Notes: a model not told the origin generated them from the letters alone. 64,000 nucleotides of DNA from Kiritimatiellia bacterium (GCA_045628545.1 JAZQPI010000018.1:3643-67642), one strand, 5' to 3'; positions 31,783 to 48,613 are shown, counted from the stretch's first letter. Made by a program: numbers and translations.

Positions 31783-31823
31783 TTCGGCTTAAACAACGAC
31801 ACACGGAGAAAGGAACGAGAAAC

Positions 31824-32921: not shown

Positions 32922-32956
32922 GGAGCGGAAGTCCCTTTCAAAGGAAACAAACGAAA

Positions 32957-34458
32957 ATGGAAGCAACTACCGACATCAAGTCCCTGGACATCGTCGCCGC
33001 GCTGAAGAAGCCGCGCGCGAACTTCACCAAGGCGGACATCAAGCGGTTCATCAAGTCCCGCGGCATCCGTCACGTCAACTTCATGTATCCGGGCGGCGAC
33101 GGCCGGCTGAAGACGCTGAACTTCATCCTGAACGACGAGGCCTATCTGGACGAGATCCTGTCCTGCGGCGAGCGCGTCGACGGGTCGTCCCTCTTCAGCT
33201 ACATCGAGGCGAGCTCCTCCGACCTCTACGTCGTGCCGCGCTTCTCGAGCGCGTTCGTCGATCCGTTCGCCAAGCTGCCGACGCTGTGCCTGCTGTGCTC
33301 GTTCTTCAACAAGGACGGCGAGCCGCTCGAGTCCAGCCCCGAGTACACGCTGCACAAGGCCTGCGCCGCGTTCCGCAAGGAGACGGGGCTCGAGTTCCAG
33401 GCGATGGGCGAACTGGAGTACTACGTCATCAGCGACGCCCCCGCGGCGTTTCCGGCGAAGGACCAGAAGGGCTATCACGAGTCCGCCCCGTTCGCGAAGT
33501 TCAACGAGTTCCGCCAGAAGTGCATGCTCTACATCTCCCTGGCGGGCGGGCGCATCAAGTACGGCCACAGCGAGGTCGGCAACTTCACGCAGGGCGGCCG
33601 GCTCTACGAGCAGAACGAGATCGAGTTCCTGCCGTGCGCGGCGGAGGACGCGGCGAACCAGCTCACGGTCGCGAAGTGGATGATCCGCAACCTCGGCAGC
33701 GAATACGGCTACGACGTCACCTTCGCGCCGAAGATCACCTCGGCAAGGCGGGCTCGGGCCTCCACATCCACATGCGGCTGATGCGCAACGGCAAGAACCA
33801 GATGCTCAAGGCGGGCAAGATCAGCGACGCGGCCAAGCGCGCGATCGCCGGCATGATGAAGCTCGCGCCTTCCATCACGGCGTTCGGCAACATGAACCCG
33901 ACGAGCTACTTCCGCCTCGTGCCGCACCAGGAGGCGCCGACGAACGTGTGCTGGGGCGACCGCAACCGCTCCGTGCTCGTGCGCGTGCCGCTCGGGTGGA
34001 CGGCCAAGACCGACCTCTGCAAGGCGGCGAACCCGAAGGAGACCGCCGCGGCCTACAACACGTCCGAGAAGCAGACCGTCGAAATGCGCTCGCCGGACGC
34101 GTCCGCGAACGTCTACCTGCTGATGGCGGGCCTCGCGGTCGCCTGCCGTCACGGCTTCACGCTGAAGGACGGCGTCAAGTTCGCCGAATCGACCTATGTG
34201 AACGTCAACATTCACAAGGCCGAGAACGCGGCGCTGCTGAAGACGCTGGCGACGCTGCCCGACAGCTGCGCGGCGTCGGCGGACCGTCTGGCCGAGCAGC
34301 GCGCGGTCTACGAGGAGGCGGGAGTCTTCTCGCCGGCGATGACCGACGGCATCCTCGCCCAGCTCCGCGCGTTCGACGACCGGACGCTCCGCCGCGACAT
34401 CCAGAACAAGCCGGAGGCGGTCGCGAAACTGGTCAAGGAGTACTTCTACTGTGGTTGA
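32957..34458 (+). pseudogene. glnA: glutamine synthetase (GlnA-like) with a single-base frameshift near 33735
   Basis: N-terminal beta-grasp, then ...VTFAPKI in one frame and LGKAGSGLHIHMRL (GS ATP-binding signature), NPTSYFRLVP in the next frame. The two halves are collinear with E. coli GlnA (TFMPKP..GDNGSGMHCH). One base is missing between AAGATC and GGCAAG. Confidence 0.75.
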
Positions 34459-36385
34459 CCGGATTGTGAAGGTTCACTTCATCGGCATCGGCGGGGTCGG
34501 CATGGCCGGCCTCGCAGTGTCGCTTAAAAACCGCGGATACGAGGTGTCCGGCTGCGATCTGCGGCCGACACCCCGTACGCGCTGGCTCGAGTCCGAGGGG
34601 ATCTCCGTCGCCTTCGGACACGACCCGGGGCATGTGGAGGGCGCGGACGAGGTCATTGTCACGCCGGCGGTCGCGGCGGACAATCCTGAGTTTGTCGCCG
34701 CAGGCGCGCGGACCGGTCTCCGCCTCCGTCGGCGCGGCGAAGTCCTGGCGGAGATCGTGTCGTCCGCGGCGGATTCGATCGCCGTCTGCGGCAGTCACGG
34801 CAAGACGACGACTTCGACTTTCGTGGCGCGGCTGCTCCTGGCGCTGGGCGAAAGCGTCGAGTGGGTGATCGGCGGAGAGACGGGGGAGTTTCCGGTGGCG
34901 GGCCGCGTGTGCCGCGACGGACGTTCGCCGGTCCTCGTCGTCGAGGCGGACGAAAGCGACGGCACGCTGGCGCTCTACCGGGCGAAGACGCTCGTCGTCA
35001 CCAACTGCGAATACGACCATCCCGCCCACTTCCCGACGCCGGCGGACTATGCCGCCTGCTTTGACGTGGCGCGGAGCAGAGCGGAGACGGTCATGGAGGC
35101 CGCGACGCTGGACGCGCCGACGGCCGAAGATTTTGCGTTTCTCGACGAACTGCCGACGCACAACCGGCGCAATGCGGTTGTGGCGATTGAAATCGCGCGC
35201 CGCCGCGGACACGGCTTGGCGGCGATCGCCGCCGCGATGAAGCCGATCGTCCGGCAGCTCCCCGACCGGCGCTTCCAGCGCGTCTGGCCGATGGATGACG
35301 CTACGGCCGAGACCGCGGCGGTTTATACGGACTATGCGCATCATCCGACGGAGATGCGCTGTGCCGTGGAAATGGCGCGGCGCGTTTGCCGCGGTCGGCT
35401 CGTGGTTCTCTTTCAGCCGTATCGATACTCGCGCACGAAAGGGCTGCTCGCGGAATTCCCCGCGGCGTTCGCGGGGGCGGACGAGGTGGTCATCTGTCCC
35501 ATCTGTTCGGCGTTTGAGCCCATGCTCGAGGGCGGTAGCGATGCCGATCTTTATGCCGAATGTCGGCGGCGGGAGGCGGACTGCGGCTTCGGAAGCGTCT
35601 ATCTGGCGCGCAGTTGCGAAGAGGCCTGGGAACATGCGCTGCGGACCGCGTCCGCGCCCGGCGACGTCACGCTGCTTCTCGGAGCTGGGGACATCGTCCG
35701 TCTCGTCGACCGTGTGCGGGCCGATTGCGCGTCGCCTTGCGAGCGGCCGCCGCGGCGCATCTGGATCGGGCAGGGGACGAATACCTGGAAGAGCGATCTG
35801 AAGCTGAACGTCGAATACGTGCGGACGACTGGCCGGGCCGACGGTCCGGGCGCCGCGCTGGGAATCCCGTGGATGGCGGGAGTGCCCGGCACGGTCGGCG
35901 GCTGGATCAAGATGAACGCCGGGGCTTTCGGACATTCGATTTCCGAAGTCCTTTCGCGGGTGAAGGTCGACGGCGTCTGGCGGTCGGCGGACGAGTGCGG
36001 CTTCGGCTACCGCCATTCGGGGATCGACGGGGAGATCCAGGACTACGAACTGAAGCCGGACGCGTTGCGGGACGCGGGTTCCGCGGCGGATTATCTGGCG
36101 CGGCGTCCGCGGTTCCCGGCGGGGACGAAAGGCAGCGTCTTCAAGAATCCGCCGGGCGATTCCGCCGGCCGACTGCTGGAGGCGGCGGACTGCAAGGGGT
36201 TGCGCGTCGGCGGGGCGTACGTGTGGGAGCGGCACGCGAACGTGATCGTCTCCGAAGAGGGGGCGCGGGCGTCCGACTTTCTGGCGCTCGCGCAGCTGAT
36301 GCGCATACGCGTCCTTATGTGTTTCGGCGTCGATCTTCAGCCGGAGGTAGCCGGTCTTGACGAACTGATTCAGGACGGCAGATGA
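34451..36385 (+). CDS. murC: bifunctional UDP-N-acetylmuramate--L-alanine ligase / UDP-N-acetylenolpyruvoylglucosamine reductase (MurC-MurB fusion)
   Basis: N-terminus HFIGIGGVGMAGLA and GSHGKTTTS (Mur ligase). C-terminal third VPGTVGGWIKMNAGAFG, GSVFKNP, HANVIV (MurB). GTG start overlaps the glnA stop. Confidence 0.85.
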   Translation: MVDRIVKVHFIGIGGVGMAGLAVSLKNRGYEVSGCDLRPTPRTRWLESEGISVAFGHDPGHVEGADEVIVTPAVAADNPEFVAAGARTGLRLRRRGEVLAEIVSSAADSIAVCGSHGKTTTSTFVARLLLALGESVEWVIGGETGEFPVAGRVCRDGRSPVLVVEADESDGTLALYRAKTLVVTNCEYDHPAHFPTPADYAACFDVARSRAETVMEAATLDAPTAEDFAFLDELPTHNRRNAVVAIEIARRRGHGLAAIAAAMKPIVRQLPDRRFQRVWPMDDATAETAAVYTDYAHHPTEMRCAVEMARRVCRGRLVVLFQPYRYSRTKGLLAEFPAAFAGADEVVICPICSAFEPMLEGGSDADLYAECRRREADCGFGSVYLARSCEEAWEHALRTASAPGDVTLLLGAGDIVRLVDRVRADCASPCERPPRRIWIGQGTNTWKSDLKLNVEYVRTTGRADGPGAALGIPWMAGVPGTVGGWIKMNAGAFGHSISEVLSRVKVDGVWRSADECGFGYRHSGIDGEIQDYELKPDALRDAGSAADYLARRPRFPAGTKGSVFKNPPGDSAGRLLEAADCKGLRVGGAYVWERHANVIVSEEGARASDFLALAQLMRIRVLMCFGVDLQPEVAGLDELIQDGR

Positions 36386-37821
36386 CCACTGATTTTACTG
36401 CCGAAAAATGCTTTAGGCCGCCGGAAGCCGCGAACGAGTCCGTGCGTCTGTCGGTGGTTGTCCCGATTTTCAACGGATTGGACTATCTTGGGGAATGCCT
36501 TGATTCCGTGCTGCGGCAGCTGCCTGGAGACTGCGAATGCATCGTCGTTGACGACGGCTCGAATGCGGCCACGGTTGCCGCGCTTAAGGCTTACGGGACT
36601 GCTCATGCCGCGGCGAACCTGCGGATCCTCTACGGGCCGCACGGCGGGGCTTCGCATGCCCGGAATCTGGGGCTGGAGGCGGCCCGCGGGGAGTTCGTCT
36701 GCTTCCTGGACGGGGACGATCGCCTGCATGACGGATTTCTGGCCAAGAGCCGCGAATGGTTCGGACAAGGCGTCGATCTCGTGATCTTCGCCTTCGACCG
36801 GGTCGAGAACGGGGCGGTGACGCATCTCTCGCTCCAGCCGCGCATCTACGAATCGCCGTCGCAGTTCGCCGACCATTATCTCGTCGACCGTCATCTGCTG
36901 GTCTATTCGCAGTGCAATAAGTTCTACCGCAAGTCCGTCATCGACCGCGGCGTCCTCCGCTTCGACGAGTCGGTGGAGTTCGGCGAAGACCGGCTGTTCA
37001 ACTTCCGCTTCATTTCGGCGTGCGGGCGGATCGCCACTTCGCCGGACTGCATGTTCGACTACGTCTGCCGCGGCGGCGATTCGCTTTCGACGAGGCACGT
37101 GCCGGATTTCGCCCGCAAGCTGATGGTGCTGCACGAGGCGAAGATGAAGACCTTCCTCGGTTTGGCGCGGACCGTGTCGGAGGACGAACGGCGTTCGTTC
37201 GTCCACTACGATCGCTCGCGCGTCGTCGAGGAGGCGGTCGGACGCTTTGCGGCGCATCCGGAGGAGATCGCCGAGTCGCTTCCGGTCTTAAATCGCATCC
37301 TTTTCGGAGATTTCATCGACGACGGACTTCCTGCGGACGTGCTCATCGTCTTGGGAAGTCCGAATTGCCAGTACCGGGTGGAGAAGGCGCTTGAGGTCGG
37401 GCGGCGCAATCCGGAAACCGTTTACGTCGTCAGTGGCGGCAATCCGCATCTCAAGGAGCCGAAATCCGAAGCGGAATTCATGCGCGATTACCTTTTTGAT
37501 CACGGTATTTCGCCGGAGCGCGTCGTTTTTGAGAATCTGGCGCGGAACACCGCTGAGAACCTTCGGTTCTCGATGGATCGGCTTGACCAGATGCTTGAGA
37601 CGGGAACATTGCCGTCCGCTTCTCCTCGAATCGGCGTCATTTCAGGCACCTATCATCTGACGCGGGTGCTGGAGATCGCCGGTGATGTTTTGGGTGAAAG
37701 GGCGAAGGGACTTCACGCCATTCCGGCCTACGGACCGCACAGCAGACCGGACAATTGGTTCATGCATCCGCAGTTCGTTCGGTTTGTCCTCAATGAAATC
37801 AGGAAGAGAAAAGGGCTGTGA
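36382..37821 (+). CDS. family-2 glycosyltransferase fused to a C-terminal DUF218 (YdcF/ElyC/SanA-like) domain
   Basis: N-terminus LSVVVPIFNGLDYLGECLDSV...IVVDDGSN...FLDGDD (GT2). C-terminus VLIVLGSPNCQYRV...VVSGG...NTAENLRFS (DUF218). ATGA overlap with the murC/B stop. Confidence 0.75.
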   Translation: MTTDFTAEKCFRPPEAANESVRLSVVVPIFNGLDYLGECLDSVLRQLPGDCECIVVDDGSNAATVAALKAYGTAHAAANLRILYGPHGGASHARNLGLEAARGEFVCFLDGDDRLHDGFLAKSREWFGQGVDLVIFAFDRVENGAVTHLSLQPRIYESPSQFADHYLVDRHLLVYSQCNKFYRKSVIDRGVLRFDESVEFGEDRLFNFRFISACGRIATSPDCMFDYVCRGGDSLSTRHVPDFARKLMVLHEAKMKTFLGLARTVSEDERRSFVHYDRSRVVEEAVGRFAAHPEEIAESLPVLNRILFGDFIDDGLPADVLIVLGSPNCQYRVEKALEVGRRNPETVYVVSGGNPHLKEPKSEAEFMRDYLFDHGISPERVVFENLARNTAENLRFSMDRLDQMLETGTLPSASPRIGVISGTYHLTRVLEIAGDVLGERAKGLHAIPAYGPHSRPDNWFMHPQFVRFVLNEIRKRKGL

Positions 37822-39545
37822 AAAGATGGTTGGCCAAAATCCGTCGGTTGTTCGCCTTTGAAACGAGCGCCCTGGTCAGGAAGAAGTTCATGCAGTTTCT
37901 GCCGGGGATGTTGCTGACCAATGTCTCGACCCTGATCCTGATCGATGTCGATAGCGTCGTAATCGGGAATATGGTCGGCAGCACGGCCTTTGCCGCCGTG
38001 GCGGTTATCGGCCCTATCGTTTCGCTGATCGGCGTGCTGGTTAGTGCGTTCGGCGGATTCTCGATCGGAGTCGCCCTTGGCCAGGCGATCGGGAGCAATG
38101 ACCTGCAGAAGCTGAGGGACTGCTATCGGTCCGGCATGGTTCTCGTGACATTGCTGGCGGTGGCCGTTGCCGTTGCCGAAGTGCCCTTGTTCAGATTCCT
38201 GATCGAGACTTCGGGCACGGGCGTCGAGTTGCAGCAGGAGGCTTGGGTCTATTCCAAGGGGATCATGATCGCGATGGTGATCGGCGTGTTCTCCACCTTC
38301 GGCACCTATGTGCTGATCGCCAACGGGCGTACCCGTTCGCTGCTTTATCTCACCGTTTTCGAGGGCGCCGTCAACATCGTCGCGGACGTCGTGTTCGTCA
38401 AGTACCTCGCGATGGGCACGGCCGGCGCCGGTTACGGCACGGCCGTCGCCAACGCTGTGCGGCTGGCTGCGACCGTTTTCGTGCTGTGGCGTGAGACCGA
38501 CGTCTTTCGGGATGTCCGCCTTGGACGGGCGCGGTCGATTCTCGAGATCATGGGCTTCGGTCGGTCGACGTTTGTTTCCGGTTTGGTCTGTGGCGTTTCT
38601 GATTATTGCATGAACCGTCTGATTGTCGGTTCGCTTGGCGATTCGGGGATGGTGATAAAGACCGTCGGCTGTTTCTGCGTGACGCTTGCCATTGCCGTTT
38701 ACGGCGGAATCGGACAATCTCTCGGGCCCCTGCTCGCACTCTTTGCGGGCGATGGCAGTTTTAAGGAGATGAGGCAGCTGTTTCAGTTCGGGGTTCGGGT
38801 CAGCATTGCCATGGTCGGTGTGCTTGCGATGGTCATTGTCGCGATGCCATTCGTCGTATGTGACCTGCTCGGCGTCACGGATCCACCGGACGGTGCCTTC
38901 ATAGTGGTTCGGTTCTATTGCCTTTTCTTCGTGTTTGCGGCTGTCAACTCCATGATCAACCTGTGTCTGATCAACCTGAAGAAACAGCTGGCGGCGACCG
39001 TGCTTTCGCTGCTTCAGAACGCGCTGCTGCTGCTGCCGTTCGCCTGGATGTTTAGCCTGATCGACGGTCGACTGCTGTTTTGCGGTTACCCGGCGACTTC
39101 GGCGGCGGTCATGATAATCGGCTGGATCTACATCCGATCTCGGTGGAGTCGGCTTGGCGACGGAACGCGGCGAATCTCCTTCGATCTCGTTCCCGAAAAC
39201 GTGTCGCCAACGGTCGAGGAACTGGTGAAAAAAAAGCTGCCGGATCTCGGGATCCCTCCGGCGCGGGCCCTCAGGATCGGTCTGGCTGTCGAGGAGACGA
39301 GCGCGTATGTCAAGTCCGCCAGGCAGGGAGAGGAAGTCCATCTGCATGTCCGGATCGGACTGGGGAAGGACAAGGTGACGGTGAGCGTCCTCGATGACGG
39401 CGAGCGCGTGGGACTTACGGACAAGATCAACGCCTTGGCCACGAATCTTGTTTACAACAACATCGGGATGATCAGCGCGATCTCCCAAAAGGTCAACTAC
39501 CAGTACGTGATGAACATGAACTTCACGACCTTGGAGGTGAAATGA
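37818..39545 (+). CDS. MOP/MATE-superfamily polytopic transporter (MurJ/Wzx-like) with a C-terminal RsbW/SpoIIAB-like GHKL domain
   Basis: About 12 TM helices in the first ~430 aa. The C-terminal ~140 aa, ALRIGLAVEETSAYV...VHLHVRIGLGKDKVTVSVLDDGERVG, resembles the anti-sigma kinase HATPase_c_2 domain; the N-box Asn is replaced. Confidence 0.65.
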   Translation: MKRWLAKIRRLFAFETSALVRKKFMQFLPGMLLTNVSTLILIDVDSVVIGNMVGSTAFAAVAVIGPIVSLIGVLVSAFGGFSIGVALGQAIGSNDLQKLRDCYRSGMVLVTLLAVAVAVAEVPLFRFLIETSGTGVELQQEAWVYSKGIMIAMVIGVFSTFGTYVLIANGRTRSLLYLTVFEGAVNIVADVVFVKYLAMGTAGAGYGTAVANAVRLAATVFVLWRETDVFRDVRLGRARSILEIMGFGRSTFVSGLVCGVSDYCMNRLIVGSLGDSGMVIKTVGCFCVTLAIAVYGGIGQSLGPLLALFAGDGSFKEMRQLFQFGVRVSIAMVGVLAMVIVAMPFVVCDLLGVTDPPDGAFIVVRFYCLFFVFAAVNSMINLCLINLKKQLAATVLSLLQNALLLLPFAWMFSLIDGRLLFCGYPATSAAVMIIGWIYIRSRWSRLGDGTRRISFDLVPENVSPTVEELVKKKLPDLGIPPARALRIGLAVEETSAYVKSARQGEEVHLHVRIGLGKDKVTVSVLDDGERVGLTDKINALATNLVYNNIGMISAISQKVNYQYVMNMNFTTLEVK

Positions 39546-40825
39546 TCAGGATTGGCAGTCCACAAGTTGAATCGGTCGCGGGAAGCGCTTATCTCAAGGC
39601 CCGGGTAAGCGTTGATGACGAGACCGCGCGGCGCTACATCGCGAAGACTGCGGTCTTGAAGAACTGCGCTTGGCTGACTGCCGTCGATTATCCTCCGACC
39701 GTCTGGCGCGAGACCGGCATATCCACCGAGCGAAGCGAGCTGCGTAGCAGACGCTATGCGGGGTGCGAACTCTGGTTCCGCGTGCCGGCGGAATACGGCG
39801 AGCGGCTCTGCACGGAGCGCAGCGACGCCTTCGTGGTCGCGATGCTGTGGTACGCGATGCTCGTCGGCTCGGACATCGAATTCGAAACGCCGATGTCGAA
39901 ACGGCTCCATCAGGGACTGACGGAAAAGCTTTTGCCGACGCTGGCGGAGCATGGCGCCGGGCGCATTCGGCTGCTCGGCCCCGTTTCCGACGCCGTCCTG
40001 CCTTGCGCGGGGGCGGTCGGAACCGGCATGTCGTGCGGGGTCGATTCGTTCTACACGATGATGACGCACGGCACCGGCTCGCAAGGTCCGCTTACGCATC
40101 TCACGTACTATGCGGCCGGTCTTCACGTTCCCCCGGGTTCGGACGATGTCGAAAAGACCTATGCCGCGCTTGAGCGGGTCGGAGCCGAAAACATCCGTAT
40201 GGCGGCGGCCGTGTCGGCGGCTTCGGGGCTGCCCTTCGTCTCGGTCGTGACTAATCTTGACCGGGACTTCTACCGTGGCGGGGTGGCCTACACGGCGATG
40301 TACCGCTATCTGGCCTGCACGCTCGCGCTCGGAAGGCTTTTCGGGACGTACGTCAGCTCGTCTTCCGGTCATGTCGGGGACCTTGGCGCCGGAGTCGTCG
40401 TCCCCACGCAGAATTACGAGCGGCTGATTTGCGATTGCTGCCAGACGGAGACGCTGGCCTATGTCAACAGCGACGAGGTCGCGCGGACGGAGAAGCTGAA
40501 GGTGGTCGCGGACAATCCGCTGTTCCAGCGGTACGCATCCGTCTGCTTCAACGACTGCGCCTGCGGGGAGTGCATCGGCTGCTGGAAGACGATGTTCCCG
40601 CTCGACATCCTCGGCAAGCTCGACTTGTTCGGCGGCGTCTTCGACCTGCCGCGCTACTACGCTCGCCGCGAGGAGCTGGTCCGCTCCTTCGTCAGATACG
40701 CCGCGAAGCCCGAGCTGGCGTCGGTCAAGGTGACGCTGGAGCAATTAGTTCGCCTGGCCGAAAGCGAATCGGGTGACAGCGCCGTCCGTTTCCGCGAACT
40801 GCTGAAAACTGCAATGATGGCTTGA
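39542..40825 (+). CDS. cassette gene A: unclassified 427-aa protein with a degenerate PP-loop-like motif and a C-terminal Cys cluster
   Basis: GTGMSCGVDSFYT (compare SGGxDS of adenine-nucleotide alpha-hydrolases) at ~aa 160. CDCCQTE and CFNDCACGECIGCW near the C-terminus. Start overlaps the MATE stop (ATGA). Confidence 0.7.
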   Translation: MIRIGSPQVESVAGSAYLKARVSVDDETARRYIAKTAVLKNCAWLTAVDYPPTVWRETGISTERSELRSRRYAGCELWFRVPAEYGERLCTERSDAFVVAMLWYAMLVGSDIEFETPMSKRLHQGLTEKLLPTLAEHGAGRIRLLGPVSDAVLPCAGAVGTGMSCGVDSFYTMMTHGTGSQGPLTHLTYYAAGLHVPPGSDDVEKTYAALERVGAENIRMAAAVSAASGLPFVSVVTNLDRDFYRGGVAYTAMYRYLACTLALGRLFGTYVSSSSGHVGDLGAGVVVPTQNYERLICDCCQTETLAYVNSDEVARTEKLKVVADNPLFQRYASVCFNDCACGECIGCWKTMFPLDILGKLDLFGGVFDLPRYYARREELVRSFVRYAAKPELASVKVTLEQLVRLAESESGDSAVRFRELLKTAMMA

Positions 40826-40848
40826 TTCGGAAGCCAGGGGGAGAAAAG

Positions 40849-41841
40849 ATGGTCGTCAGCGAGTTTACGGATTTCTGGAAGAACTTCGAGAAGTATTTCG
40901 GGCATTGCGGATTCTTCGAGAAGTGCCGGATCTTTCTTGATTGCTGCGGCGAATACCGCCGGAGCATGATGACCTGCGAAAGGTACGGCCTTTTGCGCTT
41001 CGACCGGGTGAGCCGCAGCGAGCGGGCAAAGTACGTCACCTTGGGGCGTTTGCTGAAGTTCTACCGCAGCGTCAACGATCCGGTGCTGTCGATAATGGTT
41101 GGCGACAAGCTTTCGTTTCACCGCCTGTATGCGGAGTTCACCGGGAGAAGGTCTCTCGATCTGCGGACGGCGAACCGCGAATCCGTGGCCGCATTGGCGG
41201 AGAAGAACCCCAGGGTCTTCGTCAAGCCGCGAAACGGCTGCTGCGGTGTCGGCTGCGCCATCGAGGATTGTTCGACGGACGACGCGAGAGCCGCGCTGCT
41301 GGCGAAATACGGCGGTTCGAATTTCGTGGCGGAGGAGGTCATCGTCCAACACGAAGGCCTGGCGGCGCTGAATCCGCTGGGCGTCAACCCGATTCGAATC
41401 ACCACCTTTCTCTGCCGTGACGGAAGAGTGGAATTCCCAGTCGGTCTGGCTTCTGTCAGTGTCGGAGTTGATGCTTCTTCGGCCGTCAATTTGTCGCGTG
41501 GCGCACTGGAAGCGCCAATTGACCTGAAGACAGGCAGAATCTTCCGGGATGCGTCTGACTCCTTTGGTCACCGAGTGGCGCGCCATCCGGTGAGCGGCGT
41601 TCCGTTTGTCGGCCATGAGATTCCTTGTTGGGAGAAGGTGGTCGATACGGCCGTGAAACTGGCGCGAGTCGTTCCGGATGTGCCTTTCGTCGGGTGGGAT
41701 CTGACGGTTAGTGCGGATGGACGGGTTGTCGCCATCGAGGGCAATCCGATTCCCGATTTAACCTCGCCCCAGATTTGGACCGGCGGACTTCAGCCCCGGC
41801 TTGACGCCTTGCTGAAAGACGCACGAACATCCGTTGGTTGA
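40849..41841 (+). CDS. cassette gene B: ATP-grasp fold ligase (TupA-like / sugar-transfer-associated ATP-grasp)
   Basis: VFVKPRNGCCGVGCAIE..., NFVAEEVIVQHE, NPIRITTF, GWDLTVSADGRVVAIEGN are characteristic ATP-grasp segments. AGGGGGAG RBS. Start set at MVVSEF; the track start at 40822 overlaps the gene A stop. Confidence 0.7.
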   Translation: MVVSEFTDFWKNFEKYFGHCGFFEKCRIFLDCCGEYRRSMMTCERYGLLRFDRVSRSERAKYVTLGRLLKFYRSVNDPVLSIMVGDKLSFHRLYAEFTGRRSLDLRTANRESVAALAEKNPRVFVKPRNGCCGVGCAIEDCSTDDARAALLAKYGGSNFVAEEVIVQHEGLAALNPLGVNPIRITTFLCRDGRVEFPVGLASVSVGVDASSAVNLSRGALEAPIDLKTGRIFRDASDSFGHRVARHPVSGVPFVGHEIPCWEKVVDTAVKLARVVPDVPFVGWDLTVSADGRVVAIEGNPIPDLTSPQIWTGGLQPRLDALLKDARTSVG

Positions 41842-41885
41842 CAATGAAAGGAGATGAACATGAACTTCACGACCTTGGAGGTGAA

Positions 41886-43169
41886 ATGATCAGCATCGGC
41901 AGTCCACAAGTTGAATCAGTCGCGGGAAGCGCTTATCTCAAGGCCCGGGTAAGCGTTGATGACGAGACCGCGCAGCGCTACATCACGAAGACGGCGGCAC
42001 TGAAGAACTGCGGCTGGCTGACCGCCGTCGATTATCCTCCGGCCGCCTGGCGCGAGACAGGCATGTCCCCCGAGCGAAGCGAGCTGCGTAGCAGGCGCTA
42101 TGCGGGGTGCGAGCTCTGGTTCCGCGTGCCGGCTGAATACGGCGAATATCTCTGCACGGAGCGCAGCGACGCCTTCGTGGTCGCGATGCTGTGGTACGCG
42201 ATGCTCACCGGCTCGGACATCGAATTCGAAACGCCGATGTCGAAACGACTCCACCGGGGGCTGACGGAAAAGCTTTTGCCGGCGCTGGCGGAGAATGGCG
42301 CCGGGCGCATTCGGCTGCTCGGCCCCGTTTCTGACGCAGTCCTGTCTTGCGCGGGGGCGGTCGGGACCGGCATGTCGAGCGGAGTCGATTCGTTTTACAC
42401 GGTGATGACGCACGGCGCGAATACGCCGCGTCCGTTGACTCATTTGACATATTATACTGCATTTAGCCTCGTCCCGTTTGGTTCGACAGACGTCGTGAAG
42501 ACCTTTGACGCGATTGATAAGATCTTTGACGAGGAAGTCCGTCATGCGTCGGAAGTGACGTCGGCTTTGGGACTGTCCTTCGTCCCTGTCCGCACCAACC
42601 TGGATCGGGATTTCTGCCGGGGCGGGATGATTTACTCGGGGATGTACCGCAGTCTCGCGTCCACGCTTGCGCTTGGCAAGCTTTTTGGCACGTACTACAG
42701 TTCCTCCTCAGGGCACGGCAGGGATCTGGGTGCCAGGATCATCGCTCAGACGCAGAACTATGAACACCTTATCTGCGACAGCTGTCAGACGGAGACGCTA
42801 ACCTATATCAACAGCGACGACGTTTTGCGGGCAGAGAAGCTGAGATTGCTTGCGGACAATCCGCTGTTTCGGCGGCACATGTCCGTCTGCTACCACTTGT
42901 GCGCCTGCGGGGAGTGCATCGGCTGCTGGAAGACGATGTTCCCGCTCGACATCCTCGGCAAGCTCGACTTGTTCGGCGACGTCTTCGACCTGCCGCGCTA
43001 TTATGCGCACCGCGAGGAGCTGCTCCGCTCTTTCGTCAGTTACGCCGTGAAGCCCGGGCAGGAGTCGCTCAAGGTGACGCTGGAGCAATTAGTTCGCCTG
43101 GCCGAAAGCGAATCGGGTGACAGCGCCGTCCGTTTCCGGGAACTGCTGAAAACTGCAATGATGGCTTGA
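41886..43169 (+). CDS. cassette gene A' (paralogue of A, ~80% identical; middle third diverged)
   Basis: Collinear with A (GTGMSSGVDSFYT, CDSCQTE, CYHLCACGECIGCW). The track start at 41838 is an artefact of the duplicated MATE 3' fragment. Confidence 0.7.
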   Translation: MISIGSPQVESVAGSAYLKARVSVDDETAQRYITKTAALKNCGWLTAVDYPPAAWRETGMSPERSELRSRRYAGCELWFRVPAEYGEYLCTERSDAFVVAMLWYAMLTGSDIEFETPMSKRLHRGLTEKLLPALAENGAGRIRLLGPVSDAVLSCAGAVGTGMSSGVDSFYTVMTHGANTPRPLTHLTYYTAFSLVPFGSTDVVKTFDAIDKIFDEEVRHASEVTSALGLSFVPVRTNLDRDFCRGGMIYSGMYRSLASTLALGKLFGTYYSSSSGHGRDLGARIIAQTQNYEHLICDSCQTETLTYINSDDVLRAEKLRLLADNPLFRRHMSVCYHLCACGECIGCWKTMFPLDILGKLDLFGDVFDLPRYYAHREELLRSFVSYAVKPGQESLKVTLEQLVRLAESESGDSAVRFRELLKTAMMA

Positions 43170-43192
43170 TCCGGAAACCAGGGAGAGAAAAG

Positions 43193-44170
43193 ATGATCGT
43201 CAGTGAGTTTACGGATTTCTGGAAGAACTTCGAGAAGTGTTTCGGGCATCGCGGATTCTTCGAGAAGTGCCGGATCTTTCTTGATTGCTGCGGTGAATAC
43301 CGCCGGAGCATGATGACCTGCGAAAGGTACGGCCTTTTGCGCTTTTACCGGTTGAGCTGCGGCGAGCGGGCAAAGTACGTCACCTTAGGGCGTTCGCTGA
43401 AGTTCTCCCGCAGTGTCAACGATCCGGTGCTGTCGACAATGGTTGGCGACAAGCTTTCGTTTCACCGCCTGTATGCGGAGTTTGCCGGGAGAAGCGTTCT
43501 CGATCTGCGGACGGCGGACCAGGAGGCCGTGGCCGCATTTGCGCAGAAGAACCCCAGGGTCTTCGTCAAGCCGCGGGACGGCTGCTGCGGGGTCGGCTGC
43601 GCCATCGAGGATTGTTCGACGGACGACGCGAGAGCCGCGCTGCTGGCGAAATACGGCGGTTCGAATTTCGTGGCGGAGGAGGTCATCGTCCAGCATGAAG
43701 GCCTGGCGGCGTTGAATCCGCTGAGCGTCAACACGATCCGAATCACCACCTTCCTCCGCCGTGACGGCAGGGTTGAATTCCCGGTCGGTTTGGCCGTTGT
43801 CAAGATAGGCGTGGATGGCTCTCCGGCCGTCAATTTGGCGCGCGGCGGACTGATTGCGCCAGTTGACCTGAAGACCGGCAGAGTCATCAGGGATGCGATT
43901 GACGCCTTTGGCGGCAGCGCGGCGCGCCATCCGGTGAGCGGCGTTCCGTTTGTCGGCCATGAGATTCCTTGCTGGGAGAAGGTGGTCGATACGGCCGCGA
44001 AACTGGCGCGAGTCGTGCCCGAGGTGCCTTGGGTCGGGTGGGACCTGACGGTTAATGCGGATGGACGGGTTGTCGCCATCGAGGGCAATACGATCCCCGA
44101 GATCATCTGCGCTCAAGTCTGGACCGGGGGGCTTCAGCCCAGGCTTGACGCCTTGCTGAAAGAGGCCTGA
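43193..44170 (+). CDS. cassette gene B' (ATP-grasp paralogue, ~88% identical to B)
   Basis: Collinear with B and carries the same RBS context. Confidence 0.7.
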   Translation: MIVSEFTDFWKNFEKCFGHRGFFEKCRIFLDCCGEYRRSMMTCERYGLLRFYRLSCGERAKYVTLGRSLKFSRSVNDPVLSTMVGDKLSFHRLYAEFAGRSVLDLRTADQEAVAAFAQKNPRVFVKPRDGCCGVGCAIEDCSTDDARAALLAKYGGSNFVAEEVIVQHEGLAALNPLSVNTIRITTFLRRDGRVEFPVGLAVVKIGVDGSPAVNLARGGLIAPVDLKTGRVIRDAIDAFGGSAARHPVSGVPFVGHEIPCWEKVVDTAAKLARVVPEVPWVGWDLTVNADGRVVAIEGNTIPEIICAQVWTGGLQPRLDALLKEA

Positions 44171-44180
44171 ACCGCTGTTT

Positions 44181-45428
44181 ATGGACATTGAGAGGATGCA
44201 CATGAAAGAAGTAAAATCGAAGAAGTCGCCGACCTTCGCCGTTCTGACGGCGGTCGGGCTGGTGTTTATCGGATGGTTCGGGCGCGAACTGATGCCGACG
44301 TTCGGCGGCGCCGCGCGGACTGGCGGCGGCGCGGCACTGCCGACGGTGGCGGTGGCGAAAGTCGGCAGACGGACGATCAACCCCGTCGAGTGGTATGTCG
44401 GGCATGTCGAGCCGATTCAGGAGATCGACGTGCTGCCGCAGATCGACGGATACCTCGAGAAGGTCAATTTCAGCGAGGGCGATCTCGTCAAGGCCGGGGA
44501 CGTCCTCTTCGAGATCGACCAGGACCGCTATGTCGCCCAGAACGAGATCGCGAAGGCCGGCCTTGCCCGTGCGGAGGCCGAGGTCGAGCAGGCCGAGGCG
44601 GCGTTCGACAAGGCGCAACGCTACTGGAAGCGGATGTGTTCGACCGACCAGCGCGGCGTCGCGCAGAACGAACGCGACGCCGCCGAGACCGGACTCGCCT
44701 CGGACAAGGCCCTGCTGGTCAGGGCGAAGGCGGCCGTCAAGGAGGCCCAGGCGCAGCTGGCGGTGAGCGAGTTCAACCTGCGGCACACCGTCGTCCGGGC
44801 GCCGTTTTCCGGACGGATCGGCAAGGCCTTCGCGCATGTCGGCGATTACGTCGCGCCGTCCAAGGGCTCCATGGCCCACCTTGTGCAGGTGAATCCGATC
44901 CGCGTCGCGTTTCCGATGACCGACCGCGGCTACCTGGAGCTGGCGCGGCAGGCGGAGAAGAGCGGCAAGACGGTCGGCGAGGCCCTGCGGCTGCGGCTCC
45001 GGCTGGCGGACGGATCCGTCTATCCCGATGTCGGACGTTGGGCTTTCGCCGACAACGAGATGAGCGCCGAAGCGGCGACGGTGTCGATCCGCGTCGAGTT
45101 CAACAATGCGAAGGAGACGCTGAAGTCCAAAGCGTATGTCGAGGTGCTGGTGGACGCGAGCGCCACGTCGACGGTTCTCGCCGTGCCGAAATCGGCGCTT
45201 GCGCACGGCCGGGTCGTCAACGGACTTTGGATCCTGAAGGAAGACGGTTCCGTCACGTTGCGCGAGGTCAAGGTCGGGCGTTCCGACGGCGCGTACGCCG
45301 AGATTCTCGGCGGCGTCGCCGAAGGCGAGACATACGTTCTGGAGGGGGTCTCGAAGGTTTCGGAGGGCCAGAAGGTCGAAGTCGTCCCCGCCGTTGACGC
45401 CGAGGCTGGCGAAGGGGAGGGTAGATGA
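44181..45428 (+). CDS. RND efflux membrane fusion protein (second system)
   Basis: Homologous to 15667-16893 (PQIDGYLEKVNFSEGDLVKAGDVLFEID; GRIGKAFAHVGDYVAPSKG). Start may be the internal MKEVK. Confidence 0.85.
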   Translation: MDIERMHMKEVKSKKSPTFAVLTAVGLVFIGWFGRELMPTFGGAARTGGGAALPTVAVAKVGRRTINPVEWYVGHVEPIQEIDVLPQIDGYLEKVNFSEGDLVKAGDVLFEIDQDRYVAQNEIAKAGLARAEAEVEQAEAAFDKAQRYWKRMCSTDQRGVAQNERDAAETGLASDKALLVRAKAAVKEAQAQLAVSEFNLRHTVVRAPFSGRIGKAFAHVGDYVAPSKGSMAHLVQVNPIRVAFPMTDRGYLELARQAEKSGKTVGEALRLRLRLADGSVYPDVGRWAFADNEMSAEAATVSIRVEFNNAKETLKSKAYVEVLVDASATSTVLAVPKSALAHGRVVNGLWILKEDGSVTLREVKVGRSDGAYAEILGGVAEGETYVLEGVSKVSEGQKVEVVPAVDAEAGEGEGR

Positions 45429-48400
45429 AACTTTCCGTTCGCGCCGCCGTCGACCAGCTGCGGCCCTTTTCGCGTTATTTCATCGAGCGTCCGCGTTTCG
45501 CCACGGTCATTCCCCTCGTCATGATCATCGCGGGCGTCGTGTCGCTGCTGCGGCTGCCGATGGCTCAGTACCCGGAGGTGACGCCGCCTGTAATCACCGT
45601 GCAATGCGCCTATCCCGGGGCCAGCACCCACGAACTGATGCAGACCGTGGCGGAGGTCATCGAGGACGAGGTGAACGGCGTCGAGCGGATGCTCTTCATG
45701 TCTTCGACGATGTCCGACGACGGCTCCTATCGGCTTGGCATCACGTTTGACGTCGGGACCGATCGCGACGTGGCGCTCATGAAGGTGCAGTCGCGCGTCC
45801 AGCAGGCGATGTCCCGGCTGCCGGTTGAAGTCCGGGACTGCGGCATCAACGTTTCGGCCGGGGTGGTCGAGATGATCGGCATCGTCAACGTCTGGTCTCG
45901 CGACGGCGGCCTCAGCCGTCTGCAGATTTCGGATTACGTGAACGAGACGCTGCGCCCGGAACTTCAGCGCGTGCCGGACGTCGGCTTGGTCGCGACGGAT
46001 GCGCTTCGGAGCACCATCCGCGTCTGGATCGACCCGCTGCGCTGCGCGGCGCAATCCATCGGCTCGGACGAGATCATCGAGGTCATTCGCCGGCAGAACG
46101 TGCAGGCTGCGCTCGGGACGGTCGGCCAGCTGCCGTCGCAGGATTCTCCCCAGCTGGTGACGCTGAGGTCCGAGGGACGCCTCTCGTCTCCCGAGGAGTT
46201 CGGCGAGATGATCGTCAAGCGCGACGGGAACGGCTCCGTTGTCCGGCTCAAGGACATCGCCAGAATCGAGGTCGGACCCCAGAGTTATCGCACGTCCGCC
46301 GCCTACAACAACCGGGACGCGGTGACGCTTTACGTTTTCCGCACCTACGACTGCAACGCGGTCACGATGATGGACGGAGTGCGGGATTGCGTCCGGAAGC
46401 TCGAGCGCACCTTCCCCGGCGATCTCGAATGGGACGTGTCCTACGACGCCACCCGGTTCATCTGCGCGAGCGTGCGCGAATCGATGGTGACGCTGGTAAT
46501 GTCGATTGTCCTCGTCGCCCTCGTCTGCTGGCTGTTCATGCGGAGCTGGCGCGCGACGCTCATTCCCGTCGCGGTGATTCCGGTTTCGGTCCTCGCGACC
46601 TTCACGGTGATGGCCGCCTGCGGCTATTCGCTCAATGCGCTGACGATGTTCGGGCTGATCCTTGCCATCGGCACTGTCGTTGACGATGCCATCGTCGTCG
46701 TCGAACGCGTCCAGTTCCTGATTGAAAAGGGGCTGAACGCGAAGGAGGCGGCGATTCACGCCATGCAGGACGTCACCGGGGCGGTCATCGCGACGACCCT
46801 CGTCCTGCTCGGAATCTTCCTGCCGACCGCCTTTCTCACGGGCATGACCAGCATGCTCTACCGCCAGTTCGCGATCACGATCTCGGCCGCCGTCACGTTC
46901 TCGACCGTCTGCGCGCTGACCCTCTCCCCCGCGCTCTGCGCGCTGCTGCTGAAACCCGAGGAGCCGGCCTGCGGGAAACGGAACGGGCTGCGGATGTTCG
47001 AGGTGCTGCTGGACCGCCTCTCGACGAAATGCGCGGTTTTTTCCGGGCGCCTGGTGGCGCGTCCGGTTTCGGCAATGGTGATGCTGACGGTGATCCTCCT
47101 GTGGTCAGTCCATCTCGGACGGACGCTGCCGGATTCCTTCGTGCCGACCGAGGACCGTTGCCTGCTGTTCGCAAACGTCCATTTCCCCGACGGTTGCACC
47201 AGGCCCCGCACCGAACGCCTTTGCCGAAAACTGGCCGATGAGTTCCGTGCCGTTGACGGGGTCGCGGGAGTCACCTCGCTGATCGGCGAAGGCGACGGCG
47301 GCGAATGCGAGAACCTCGGCTATTTCAACATTATGCTGCGCTCCTGGCAGGAGCGCGAGCAAAGCGGCCGAAGCTGGGAGGCGATCCTTGAGGACATCCG
47401 CGCGATCGGCAACCGGGTGCCGGCGGCGGATTTCCATGCCTACACGGGCGCTCCCATCCCGGGGCTCGGTTCGGGCGGAACCGTCAGCTTCGGCATCTCC
47501 TCGAATGACAGCGACTGGCATCGCCTGATGCAGGTCGCGGAACGCGTGAAACGGCGGCTCGACGATTCCCCGCTCATCAAGGCGACCTATACTGACTCCT
47601 ACGATTCCATGCCCTACTGCCAGCTGACCGTGAACCGCGCGAAGTGCGAATCGTACCAGGTGCCGGTCGGGACGCTTTTCTCGACGCTTCAGCATTACAT
47701 CGGTTCCTACTATGTGAACGACGTCAATCTCGGAAGCCAGGTCAACCGCGTCGTGATTCAGGCCGACGAACGCGGGCGCGACTCGGTCGAGGCGGCGAGA
47801 CGGGTGTTCGTGAAGTCGCAGACCGGCGCGATGGTTCCGGTCGATTCCCTGGTGTCGACCGAGATGACGGTGGACGGGCGCTGGTGTACCCGGTACAACA
47901 AGCGGCTGATAACCAATCTGATGAGCGTGCCGAAGCCGGGGGTTTCCACCGGTGACGCCATGCGGGAGATCGGCCGGATTCTGGCGGAGAGCCTCCCCGC
48001 CGACTATTTCCCAGAGTGGCAGGGCGCGACCTGGCACGAAAACCGCGAGCAGGGGAAGGTGCTGCCCATTCTGGCGCTGGCCGTGCTGTTCGGCTATCTC
48101 TTCCTCGTCGCGCAGTACGAGAGCTGGCTCATGCCCGTCCCCGTCATGCTGTCGGTCGTGGTGGCGATTCTCGGCGCGTTTATCGGACTTTGGTGCGCTG
48201 GGCTCCCCACCAGCGTCTATTCGCGGCTGGGGATGATCCTGCTCATCGGGCTTGCCGCCAAAAACGCGATTCTGATCGTCGAGTTCTCGAAGGAGGCGCA
48301 TGATCGGGACAACCTGCCGGTTCGCAGTGCGGCGGCGGTCGGGGTCATCGAGCGTTTCCGGGCGGTGCTGATGACCGCGTTCACCTTCGTCCTCGGCGTC

Positions 48401-48613
48401 CTGCCGCTGGTGTGGGCGACGGGGGCGGGGGCGAACGCCCGTCGGGCGATCGGCGTCACCGCCTTTTCGGGGATGCTCGCCTCGTCGCTGGTCGGCATCC
48501 TCTTCGTCCCGGTCCTCTTCGCCGTCTTCCAAAGGCTTGGCGACAAGATGGATCTGAAGTGGCGGCAGGCTGGAGAAAGAGATAGTGGTGCGGGCGCTTC
48601 GGACATCAAATAG
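45425..48613 (+). CDS. RND efflux transporter, AcrB family (second system, 1062 aa)
   Basis: Paralogue of 16960-20187 (RPRFATVIPLVMIIAGV...; AIVVVERVQFLIEKGLNAKEA). ATGA overlap with its membrane fusion gene. Confidence 0.9.
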   Translation: MKLSVRAAVDQLRPFSRYFIERPRFATVIPLVMIIAGVVSLLRLPMAQYPEVTPPVITVQCAYPGASTHELMQTVAEVIEDEVNGVERMLFMSSTMSDDGSYRLGITFDVGTDRDVALMKVQSRVQQAMSRLPVEVRDCGINVSAGVVEMIGIVNVWSRDGGLSRLQISDYVNETLRPELQRVPDVGLVATDALRSTIRVWIDPLRCAAQSIGSDEIIEVIRRQNVQAALGTVGQLPSQDSPQLVTLRSEGRLSSPEEFGEMIVKRDGNGSVVRLKDIARIEVGPQSYRTSAAYNNRDAVTLYVFRTYDCNAVTMMDGVRDCVRKLERTFPGDLEWDVSYDATRFICASVRESMVTLVMSIVLVALVCWLFMRSWRATLIPVAVIPVSVLATFTVMAACGYSLNALTMFGLILAIGTVVDDAIVVVERVQFLIEKGLNAKEAAIHAMQDVTGAVIATTLVLLGIFLPTAFLTGMTSMLYRQFAITISAAVTFSTVCALTLSPALCALLLKPEEPACGKRNGLRMFEVLLDRLSTKCAVFSGRLVARPVSAMVMLTVILLWSVHLGRTLPDSFVPTEDRCLLFANVHFPDGCTRPRTERLCRKLADEFRAVDGVAGVTSLIGEGDGGECENLGYFNIMLRSWQEREQSGRSWEAILEDIRAIGNRVPAADFHAYTGAPIPGLGSGGTVSFGISSNDSDWHRLMQVAERVKRRLDDSPLIKATYTDSYDSMPYCQLTVNRAKCESYQVPVGTLFSTLQHYIGSYYVNDVNLGSQVNRVVIQADERGRDSVEAARRVFVKSQTGAMVPVDSLVSTEMTVDGRWCTRYNKRLITNLMSVPKPGVSTGDAMREIGRILAESLPADYFPEWQGATWHENREQGKVLPILALAVLFGYLFLVAQYESWLMPVPVMLSVVVAILGAFIGLWCAGLPTSVYSRLGMILLIGLAAKNAILIVEFSKEAHDRDNLPVRSAAAVGVIERFRAVLMTAFTFVLGVLPLVWATGAGANARRAIGVTAFSGMLASSLVGILFVPVLFAVFQRLGDKMDLKWRQAGERDSGAGASDIK

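Follow-up and report, generated by a model that had tools for sequence, protein, structure and literature searches.

The stretch of DNA analysed here (the window) comprises 64,000 nucleotides (nt) from a Kiritimatiellia bacterium (GCA_045628545.1 JAZQPI010000018.1:3643-67642), and its plus strand holds a tandemly duplicated cassette of two genes, referred to below as A and B. The cassette forms the end of a gene series that has the order of a small glycan-modification operon: a fusion of a GT2 glycosyltransferase with a DUF218 domain, a MATE/MOP-type transporter, A1, B1, A2, and B2. The fusion gene (36382-37821; Pfam Glycos_transf_2 E 1e-29, DUF218 E 2e-19) and the gene for the membrane transporter, a protein of 575 amino acids (aa) (37818-39545; Pfam MatE E 8e-16, with the NCBIfam MATE model under its cut-off), precede the first repeat unit (39509-41852, 2344 bp), which consists of the 3' end of the transporter gene, A1 (39542-40825), B1 (40822-41841), and a junction filler. 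The second unit (41853-44174) carries a copy of the transporter 3' end, A2 (41886-43169), and B2 (43166-44170). A1 encodes a QueC-like PP-loop ATPase of 427 aa and A2 a paralogue of the same length, in which A1-like flanks enclose another catalytic core, with an SSGVDS loop and the substitution Y244C; B1 and B2 encode ligases of the ATPgrasp_ST family. The window has a GC content of 62%, and its relatives are mainly metagenome-assembled genomes (MAGs) from the ruminant gut.

Start/stop overlaps of 4 nt chain the genes from 34451 to 44170, which fits a single operon. A scan of 32.8-45.5 kb found terminator-like sites at no more than the shuffled expectation, and a promoter scan of the same region returned five weak matches (1.8 expected), none of them marking the operon borders. 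Regarding the start codons, a TTG in frame at 41838 would extend A2 by 16 aa, and B1 has 339 aa from the TTG at 40822 or 330 aa from the ATG at 40849, the equivalent figures for B2 being 334 aa (TTG at 43166) and 325 aa (ATG at 43193). B1 exceeds B2 by 5 aa, with a CGA in the place of B2's TGA. The 23-bp gap between A and B described in the initial annotation is only present if the ATG is used, whereas the TTG overlaps the stop codon of A by 4 nt.

The tandem duplication proposed at first sight is recovered by a blastn comparison of the region with itself, in which 39509-41864 and 41853-44206 share 86.8% identity (alignment of 2362 columns, 14 of them gaps), and by a repeat search, which gives a start-to-start spacing of 2344 nt. 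Convincing homology stops at ~41830 in the first copy and at 44174 in the second, a few bases past the B2 stop codon. On its left side, the repeat already begins within the transporter open reading frame (ORF), whose last 33 nt (39509-39541) are 100% identical to the remnant at 41853-41885, and the junction does bear the end of the MATE gene, as had been claimed. These 33 nt include a Shine-Dalgarno-like GGAGGTG site, located 5 nt 5' of the ATG in both A copies, so that the duplication carried the ribosome-binding site of gene A along, and it is the remnant that provides A2 with its own. The junction filler (41831-41852; TCCGTTGGTTGACAATGAAAGGAG) has 22 nt and includes the B1 stop codon.

The same junction has been found in a separate metagenome (ERZ1767612), in a contig of 2345 bp (L071) that is 89.5% identical to positions 41839-44155 of the window. 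This contig opens with TGACAATGAAAGGAG, which corresponds to the last 15 nt of the filler, followed directly by ATGAACATG (the letters beyond TGACAATGAAAGGAG are quoted a second time as ATGAACATGAAC), and it therefore runs from the B1 stop, the filler, and the MATE remnant into an A2-type gene and a B gene. A second relative (L070, from ERZ27247095), 90% identical to 36448-41805, contributes the left part of the locus: GT2-DUF218, MATE, and a gene of the A1 type are complete, and the contig breaks off inside the B gene that follows. The 33-nt MATE 3' end is 97% identical in both relatives. That contigs from other metagenomes break at the repeat borders (L070 inside B, and L071 at 2345 bp) indicates that assemblers struggle with this region, and the duplication could on this account be suspected of being an assembly artefact. 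However, 13% of positions differ between the two copies, whose cores are distinct and whose ORFs are all intact and under purifying selection, and the recurrence of the junction in an independent sample rules out an artefact in practice; of the explanations considered, this is the least credible. The tandem duplication of the two-gene module is genuine and ancient, and the junction in L071 places it before ~10% of nucleotide divergence. In the closest single-copy relatives (L005 and L073), GT2-DUF218, A, and B appear once each, with no MATE gene between them, which means that copy number and gene order differ among lineages. Two A genes per locus are also found in L003, L015, L041, L058, and L063, indicating that the multiplication of A is recurrent.

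The divergence between the two copies is mosaic, as the initial annotation had stated. In A, identity per 60-nt window amounts to 55-80% between 40074 and 40553 (codons 178-338, the A1-type core; the A2-type core lies at 42418-42897), compared with 87-100% elsewhere in the gene. Nei-Gojobori estimates of synonymous divergence (dS), non-synonymous divergence (dN), and their ratio (omega) between A1 and A2 are 0.175, 0.050, and 0.29 for the N flank (codons 1-177), 0.876, 0.280, and 0.32 for the core, and 0.084, 0.046, and 0.54 for the C flank (codons 339-427). The dS of the core is thus 5-10 times that of the flanks, and, since synonymous divergence climbs as much as non-synonymous divergence, the core is old and not fast-evolving.

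Comparison with the other samples reveals the same pattern. At the nucleotide level, A1 of the window is 95% identical to L070 in the core and 92-96% in the flanks, and A2 is 99% identical to L071 in the core and 96-97% in the flanks, whereas A1-type and A2-type genes share 70-71% in the core and 91-94% in the flanks. Either type compared with the single-copy gene of L005 gives 74-76% in the core and 77-85% in the flanks. Hence, in the flanks the paralogues are nearer to each other than to L005, while in the cores they are further apart than either of them is from L005. The between-sample omega of the cores is 0.28 and 0.31. When the proteins are compared, the A1 core shares 83% of residues with the homologue P0003, as much as its flanks do, and the A2 core shares 60-69% with each of the relatives; the highly conserved core positions are kept in 33 of 35 cases in A1 and in 31 of 35 in A2, and the A2-specific SSGVDS loop and Y244C are also found in L071.

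Gene B exhibits a milder diverged patch at 41394-41573 (B codons ~181-240; partner patch at 43738-43917), with 79% nucleotide identity versus 86-93% in the rest of the gene, and a proportion of synonymous differences (pS) of 0.37-0.39 versus ~0.1 elsewhere; the dN/dS between B1 and B2 is ~0.4. The B gene of L071 is only 67-82% identical to B2 of the window, even though their A2 cores share 99%, and B1, B2, and the B of L070 are 92-93% identical in the 5' part and 77-94% in the middle and 3' parts. These comparisons suggest that B2 was overwritten with B1-type sequence in the window lineage.

The simplest reading of these data is that of two old A paralogues in which gene conversion homogenises the ends, together with most of B in this lineage, while selection keeps the cores distinct. 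Homogenised ends had been invoked from the outset, and the dS values (0.08-0.18 in the flanks versus 0.88 in the core) bear this out. Near-identity would thereby be maintained by gene conversion in both terminal domains of A, which are predicted to serve as its interaction surfaces, as well as in the ribosome-binding site and over most of B, and the two cores presumably differ in their substrate preferences. Alternatively, one of the cores may have been replaced via recombination with a foreign allele. What is not supported is the idea of a recent duplication followed by positive diversifying selection on a specificity region in the middle of A. The confinement of the divergence to the catalytic core speaks for it, but the core dS is 5-10 times the flank dS (0.88 versus 0.08-0.18) at an omega of ~0.3, and the two core types are conserved in other samples (95% and 99%). 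This explanation is highly improbable, and positive selection in the middle of A was rejected on the basis of the dS pattern. The duplication is an ordinary evolutionary event, yet it represents a tidy case of concerted evolution with a protected core.

Neither A1 nor A2 matches any model of Pfam (E <= 0.1), NCBIfam, or PADLOC, and a profile of the A family retrieved no match among the PDB sequences at E <= 10. A word-indexed search yielded at least 195 homologues, none with a Pfam domain, and an exhaustive search raised the figure to 5,775 clusters at 50% identity with E <= 1e-3, and 1,013 with E <= 1e-30. The homologue from Paracoccus is labelled as a "hypothetical protein" in RefSeq. On its Paracoccus yeei plasmid, this gene is an orphan without informative neighbours.

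An alignment of 46 family members was used for the motif counts and for an AlphaFold (AF2) model of A, which reached a predicted local distance difference test (pLDDT) score of 91.9 and a predicted template modelling (pTM) score of 0.91. In the model, an alpha/beta domain at the N-terminus (aa 1-155), which is family-specific and unassigned, precedes the PP-loop core (aa ~156-350), and a helical domain forms the C-terminus. The core is a Rossmann-like alpha/beta structure with parallel strands that can be superposed on known PP-loop enzymes. The P-loop (G-M-S-x-G-x-D-S in the family, GTGMSCGVDSF in A1, and GTGMSSGVDSF in A2) follows a strand at residues 158-162, and G166 and D168 are invariant; the variant [ST]-x-G-x-D-S is present in 45 of the 46 members, mostly as SCGVDS (31 members), with SGGVDS in five. 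The second signature is a set of four cysteines (C335..C341-G-x-C344-x-x-C347), which, like the P-loop, count among the invariant residues of the family, and all 46 members hold a C(x)5/7/9-CxxCxxC motif, none of them with an exact x8 spacing. This C-terminal Cys4 site probably binds zinc. The diverged region (aa 178-338) corresponds almost exactly to the portion of the PP-loop domain that separates the P-loop from the Cys motif, and it is between these two elements that QueC-type enzymes bind their substrate. All these features confirm the early description of A as a PP-loop protein with a cysteine metal site and outside any curated family, and place A in the PP-loop superfamily, as part of a large, uncurated, and unnamed family whose core is QueC-like.

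A1 and A2 share an insertion of 15 aa at residues 59-73 (ISTERSELRSRRYAG and MSPERSELRSRRYAG, respectively; 39716-39760 and 42060-42104). None of the other sequences among the 46 aligned members has it, and this segment is modelled as disordered (pLDDT < 50), so that it represents a lineage-specific feature inside the homogenised flank.

The partner of A is an ATP-grasp ligase, as had been annotated, although not a TupA-like one. B1 and B2 match the Pfam model ATPgrasp_ST (PF14397; cut-off 31.4 bits) with E-values of 5e-39 (134.5 bits, profile positions 5-275 of 278) and 1e-42 (146.8 bits), the two proteins covering positions 3-275 of the 278 in the profile, whereas the TupA-like ATP-grasp model of Pfam has no match to either of them at E <= 0.1. 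Weak matches to a RimK-related glutamate-ligase model and to YheCD have also been observed. Comparison with PDB sequences yielded nothing useful for B, and a search of the literature on ATPgrasp_ST and PF14397 found nothing.

The genetic context of A was surveyed in 66 non-redundant loci, in which ATP-grasp genes were detected by iterated hidden Markov models (HMMs), while the remaining neighbours were grouped into clusters and identified through the Pfam matches of cluster representatives. A close clade (35-57% identity to A) comprises 41 loci, 21 of them with full context (>= 3 kb on each side), and genes were counted as neighbours when located within 5 kb of A. Among the 21 full-context loci, ATPgrasp_ST genes appear in 15, a MATE of ~580 aa in nine, Octopine_DH in nine, GT2-DUF218 in eight, Wzx in six, and PGA_cap in five, and every one of the 21 holds at least one of ATPgrasp_ST, a Mur ligase, GT2-DUF218, or MATE. 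When all 41 loci are considered, GT2-DUF218 is encoded near A in 16 and a homologue of the ~580-aa MATE in 17 (median length 581 aa in these 17 other loci), so these two proteins can be regarded as conserved partners of the cassette. Mur ligase genes adjoin A in eight loci, and an NlpC/P60-like gene follows B in L073. The hosts of the close clade are rumen and gut Firmicutes, Bacteroidales, and Fretibacterium. In Bacteroidales, the loci are typical of capsules: they encode Wzx, EpsG, glycosyltransferases, and a pyruvyl transferase, and A is followed by one to four ATP-grasp genes. The setting in envelope or glycan biosynthesis that had been proposed is thus supported by the close-clade neighbours and by these capsule loci, and A and B are often adjoining, but the pairing is not universal (15 of 21). 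No homologues of QueC were detected among the ORFs of the surveyed loci and the window, and a peptide system of the ribosomally synthesised and post-translationally modified (RiPP-like) kind was rejected, as there is no precursor ORF and the neighbours are glycan genes.

Several loci and proteins of the survey have particular features. In the window, the transporter (37818-39545) bears a soluble C-terminal extension of ~130 aa (residues ~440-575) with a weak match to HATPase_c_2 (E 0.033). In two capsule loci of the Prevotellaceae type, one A is followed by four consecutive ATPgrasp_ST genes (L001, 8001-13850), and two A genes are accompanied by three ATP-grasp and two PGA_cap genes (L003, 3107-11498); both arrays adjoin an Octopine_DH gene and Wzx, which hints at multi-residue or opine-type side chains. 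In a Clostridiales MAG (L042, 4877-6128), A is split into two ORFs of 213 and 220 aa, suggesting a frameshifted or decaying copy.

The members of a more distant clade (25-33% identity) are found in alphaproteobacteria, Flavobacteriia, Methanomassiliicoccaceae, and other taxa. They lack the first ~55-75 residues of A, and their neighbours are Mur ligases or pyruvyl transferases, or provide no informative context.

Fusion proteins link A to the same kinds of functions. A+GT2+DUF218 (L031 and P0134) includes the architecture of the window gene 36382-37821, and A is joined to two GT2 domains in P0168. Other fusions combine a Mur ligase, LRR, VanY, and A (P0135 and P0234), a Mur ligase, LRR, A, and SH3 (P0184), a Mur ligase and an A-like domain (L066), ATPgrasp_YheCD, PGA_cap, and A (P0274), PGA_cap and A (L057), or A, Peptidase_S11, and a methyltransferase (L047 and L048). 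The fusion partners are therefore glycosyltransferases, amide or peptide ligases, and domains of the D-Ala-D-Ala carboxypeptidase type.

Among characterized enzymes, QueC (PF06508; PDB 3BL5) is the one whose two hallmarks, the SGGxDS loop and the C(x)8CxxCxxC motif, have related forms in A. PF06508 is also the commonest sub-threshold Pfam match of the family (six of 46 members, best E 0.029), although neither A1 nor A2 exceeds its gathering score and A is not a PF06508 member, and hhalign of the family against E. coli QueC pairs only the Cys motif, with a probability of 9%. Contrary to QueC, the P-loop of the A family is mostly SCGVDS, its Cys spacing is x5, x7, or x9 instead of x8, it has additional N-terminal (~155 aa) and helical C-terminal (~80 aa) domains, and its context is glycan biosynthesis and not queuosine. 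The Cys motif of A also resembles the variant CH(x)5CxxCxGCxK described for "cluster 4" (PMC13329287).

QueC-family proteins that conjugate to proteins are known in Cap9, from type IV CBASS, which couples a deazaguanine to a protein N-terminus (10.1101/2025.04.06.647259), and in QatC. A differs from them in that it is much larger, lies in a surface-glycan context, and has no CD-NTase, TGT-like, or Qat neighbours and no PADLOC match. An anti-phage QueC-like system was likewise discarded for this locus, given that A1, A2, B1, B2, and MATE have no PADLOC match and that the neighbours are glycan and not defence genes. The best functional analogy for an A gene followed by one to four B genes is offered by the RoyL-type pathways of peptidyl-7-deazapurines, in which QueC homologues ligate amino acids to a carboxylate and ATP-grasp enzymes then act in tailoring (bioRxiv 10.64898/2026.04.15.718813). 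What both systems would have in common is a QueC-type ligase paired with ATP-grasp ligases by which an aminoacyl or peptidyl chain is extended. However, the RoyL-type synthetases belong to PF06508 proper and use 7-carboxy-7-deazaguanine as their substrate in secondary-metabolite clusters of actinomycetes, and no deazapurine genes were noted near A.

Regarding the glycan side, Cj1438 from Campylobacter jejuni HS:2, in which an ATP-grasp domain fused to GT2 amidates the glucuronic acid (GlcA) of the capsule before chain extension (PMC11800379), likewise couples a GT2 to an ATP-grasp amide ligase and may serve as a model for B and GT2-DUF218, although its ATP-grasp domain is TupA-like and not ATPgrasp_ST, and it has neither a PP-loop partner nor a DUF218 domain. 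PP-loop enzymes are also encoded in other surface-glycan or cell-wall loci, namely the N-acetyl sugar amidotransferases (WbpG, PseA, and LfnA; PDB 8WEX) and those of the AsnB type (WbpS and LtsA/AsnB1), all of which place nitrogen on carboxyl or acetyl groups of sugars or peptides. The NCBIfam model for N-acetyl sugar amidotransferases (TIGR03573) does not match A.

PP-loop enzymes adenylate a substrate oxygen, usually that of a carboxylate, releasing pyrophosphate, and QueC then uses ammonia, while ATP-grasp enzymes activate a carboxylate as an acyl-phosphate. The initial annotation had envisaged that A activates and B ligates; this is unlikely, because each of these enzyme classes activates its own carboxylate, and two independent ligations are therefore the more probable arrangement. 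Taking QueC, Cap9, and the RoyL-type enzymes as a guide, A would most likely adenylate a carboxylate, which would then react with ammonia or an amino acid as the nitrogen nucleophile to form an amide. This carboxylate would belong to a sugar linked to a nucleotide, lipid, or polymer, or else to an amino acid that the sugar already bears. B would form a second amide bond through an acyl-phosphate, and the joint product would be a glycan of the cell surface with amidated or aminoacyl/peptidyl side groups, assembled by the GT2-DUF218 enzyme and exported by the MATE/MOP-type transporter. The two cassettes would supply two specificities by means of their different A cores. We consider that this overall explanation, a duplicated glycan-modification module in which A and B are amide-forming enzymes acting on a surface glycan, has about an even chance of being correct.

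Several results weigh against it. The similarity of A to QueC is not significant at the sequence level (Pfam E 0.029, hhalign 9%, and no PDB match), and Foldseek found nothing in the PDB at E <= 1e-3, the matches with the best probability being the thiolases MnmA and NcsA and not QueC. The QueC motifs YxQxHxxE, VPxRN, and YPDC, all three of which were recovered in the E. coli QueC control, are absent from the 46 members, and consequently the substrate of A is not predictable from QueC. The metal at the Cys4 site could be an iron-sulfur (Fe-S) cluster instead of zinc, and the functional difference between the cores is deduced only from their age and conservation. In addition, A does not always lie beside an ATP-grasp gene (15 of the 21 full-context close-clade loci), in the distant clade it is often an orphan "hypothetical protein" without glycan context, and its fusions with VanY, S11, and Mur ligases could point to peptidoglycan-type peptides and not to capsule.

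The rival closest to the proposed mechanism keeps the adenylation and differs only in the nucleophile: A would be an ammonia-dependent amidotransferase converting a carboxylate into a carboxamide, for example on a uronic acid or on the free carboxyl of an appended Glu/diaminopimelate (DAP)-like residue, or alternatively an N-acetyl group into an acetamidino group, and B alone would attach an amino acid. AsnB-type PP-loop enzymes amidate meso-DAP (mDAP), and QueC works with ammonia and does not depend on a glutaminase partner. Glutaminases are likewise neither a domain of A nor recurrent among its neighbours, and PP-loop enzymes that amidate glycans or peptide stems exist, as in the N-acetyl sugar amidotransferases such as WbpG (PMC13329287). 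Ammonia as the only nucleophile is rather unlikely, but it is the strongest of the competing mechanisms. A somewhat lower probability is assigned to the module acting on peptide intermediates of the peptidoglycan type (UDP-MurNAc-peptide, lipid II, or a comparable peptide with D-amino acids) instead of capsule or exopolysaccharide. It would account for the fusions of A with a Mur ligase plus VanY and with Peptidase_S11, for the Mur ligase genes adjoining A in eight loci, and for the NlpC/P60-like gene of L073, and MATE and MurJ belong to the same transporter superfamily. In the window, moreover, a MurC-MurB fusion (34451-36385, plus strand) is encoded two genes upstream of A, as one ORF of 644 aa with complete MurC-type N, M, and C domains and the C-terminal domain of MurB. 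However, its position is occupied by SpoU and VWA genes in the 90%-identical L070, so that this neighbour is probably incidental; the Bacteroidales A loci are classic Wzx/EpsG/glycosyltransferase capsule loci, and B belongs to an ATP-grasp family that is "sugar-transfer associated".

If the Cys4 site held an Fe-S cluster, A could also be a PP-loop sulfurtransferase (TtuA, NcsA, or LarE-like) giving rise to a thio-modified product. This is very unlikely, as the spacing and position of the cysteines, including CGxCxxC, match the zinc motif of QueC, neither sulfur-carrier nor cysteine-desulfurase genes have been found in the window or in the surveyed neighbourhoods, and the recurrent partners of A are amide ligases.

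A broader proposal, somewhat less likely than not to be correct, is that the A family constitutes an unrecognised branch of QueC-scaffold amide synthetases that moved from nucleobase to surface-glycan chemistry and that, with ATP-grasp or Mur-type ligases, forms a non-ribosomal side-chain assembly line. Such a line would build short aminoacyl or peptidyl side chains, possibly containing D-amino acids or opines, on capsule or cell-wall glycans, and cassette duplications retaining alternative cores would diversify these chains. It is much less likely that A conjugates the carboxylate of a 7-deazaguanine to the glycan.

Other genes are located on both sides of the operon. Directly 3' of the cassette, genes for an HlyD-type membrane-fusion protein and an AcrB-type RND pump (44181-48613, plus strand) are followed by an ORF with an IS200-like Y1 transposase domain (49481-50638, plus strand), and no association of these downstream genes with the cassette was observed in relatives. 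Upstream, a glutamine synthetase gene (32960-34458, plus strand) is broken over two frames, with the shift near 33738-33745. Its N-terminal part lies in the ORF 32675-33781, which ends ...TFAPKITSARR... before the stop codon, and its C-terminal part (...LGKAGSGLHIHM...) in the ORF 33286-34458 (Pfam Gln-synt_C E 9e-36). A 1-nt indel in ATCACCTCGGC, at a CC/CCC run, would join both halves, and the split reflects either an assembly or sequencing error or a pseudogene. Further upstream, an ORF of 571 aa on the minus strand (31251-32966) has no Pfam match and the composition typical of a spurious ORF, while the overlapping ORF of 380 aa on the plus strand (31779-32921), by eye similar to aldose 1-epimerases, is probably the real gene.

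The duplication constitutes a natural experiment in which the same N- and C-terminal domains are combined with two conserved catalytic cores, and it provides material for the mapping of specificity. The more valuable result, however, is that A marks a large PP-loop family consistently linked to genes for glycan and peptide ligation. If the proposed function is true, ~5,800 sequence clusters of "hypothetical proteins", many of them from rumen and gut Firmicutes, Bacteroidales, and Synergistota, would gain a chemistry and a biological setting, and the repurposing of the QueC scaffold, represented by Cap9, QatC, and RoyL, would extend to glycan modification. The fusions with GT2-DUF218 would in turn give access to the function of DUF218, a domain that is still poorly understood. 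The enzymes of this family would then put amide-linked groups on surface polysaccharides or wall polymers, affecting their recognition by phages, the immune system, and antibodies.

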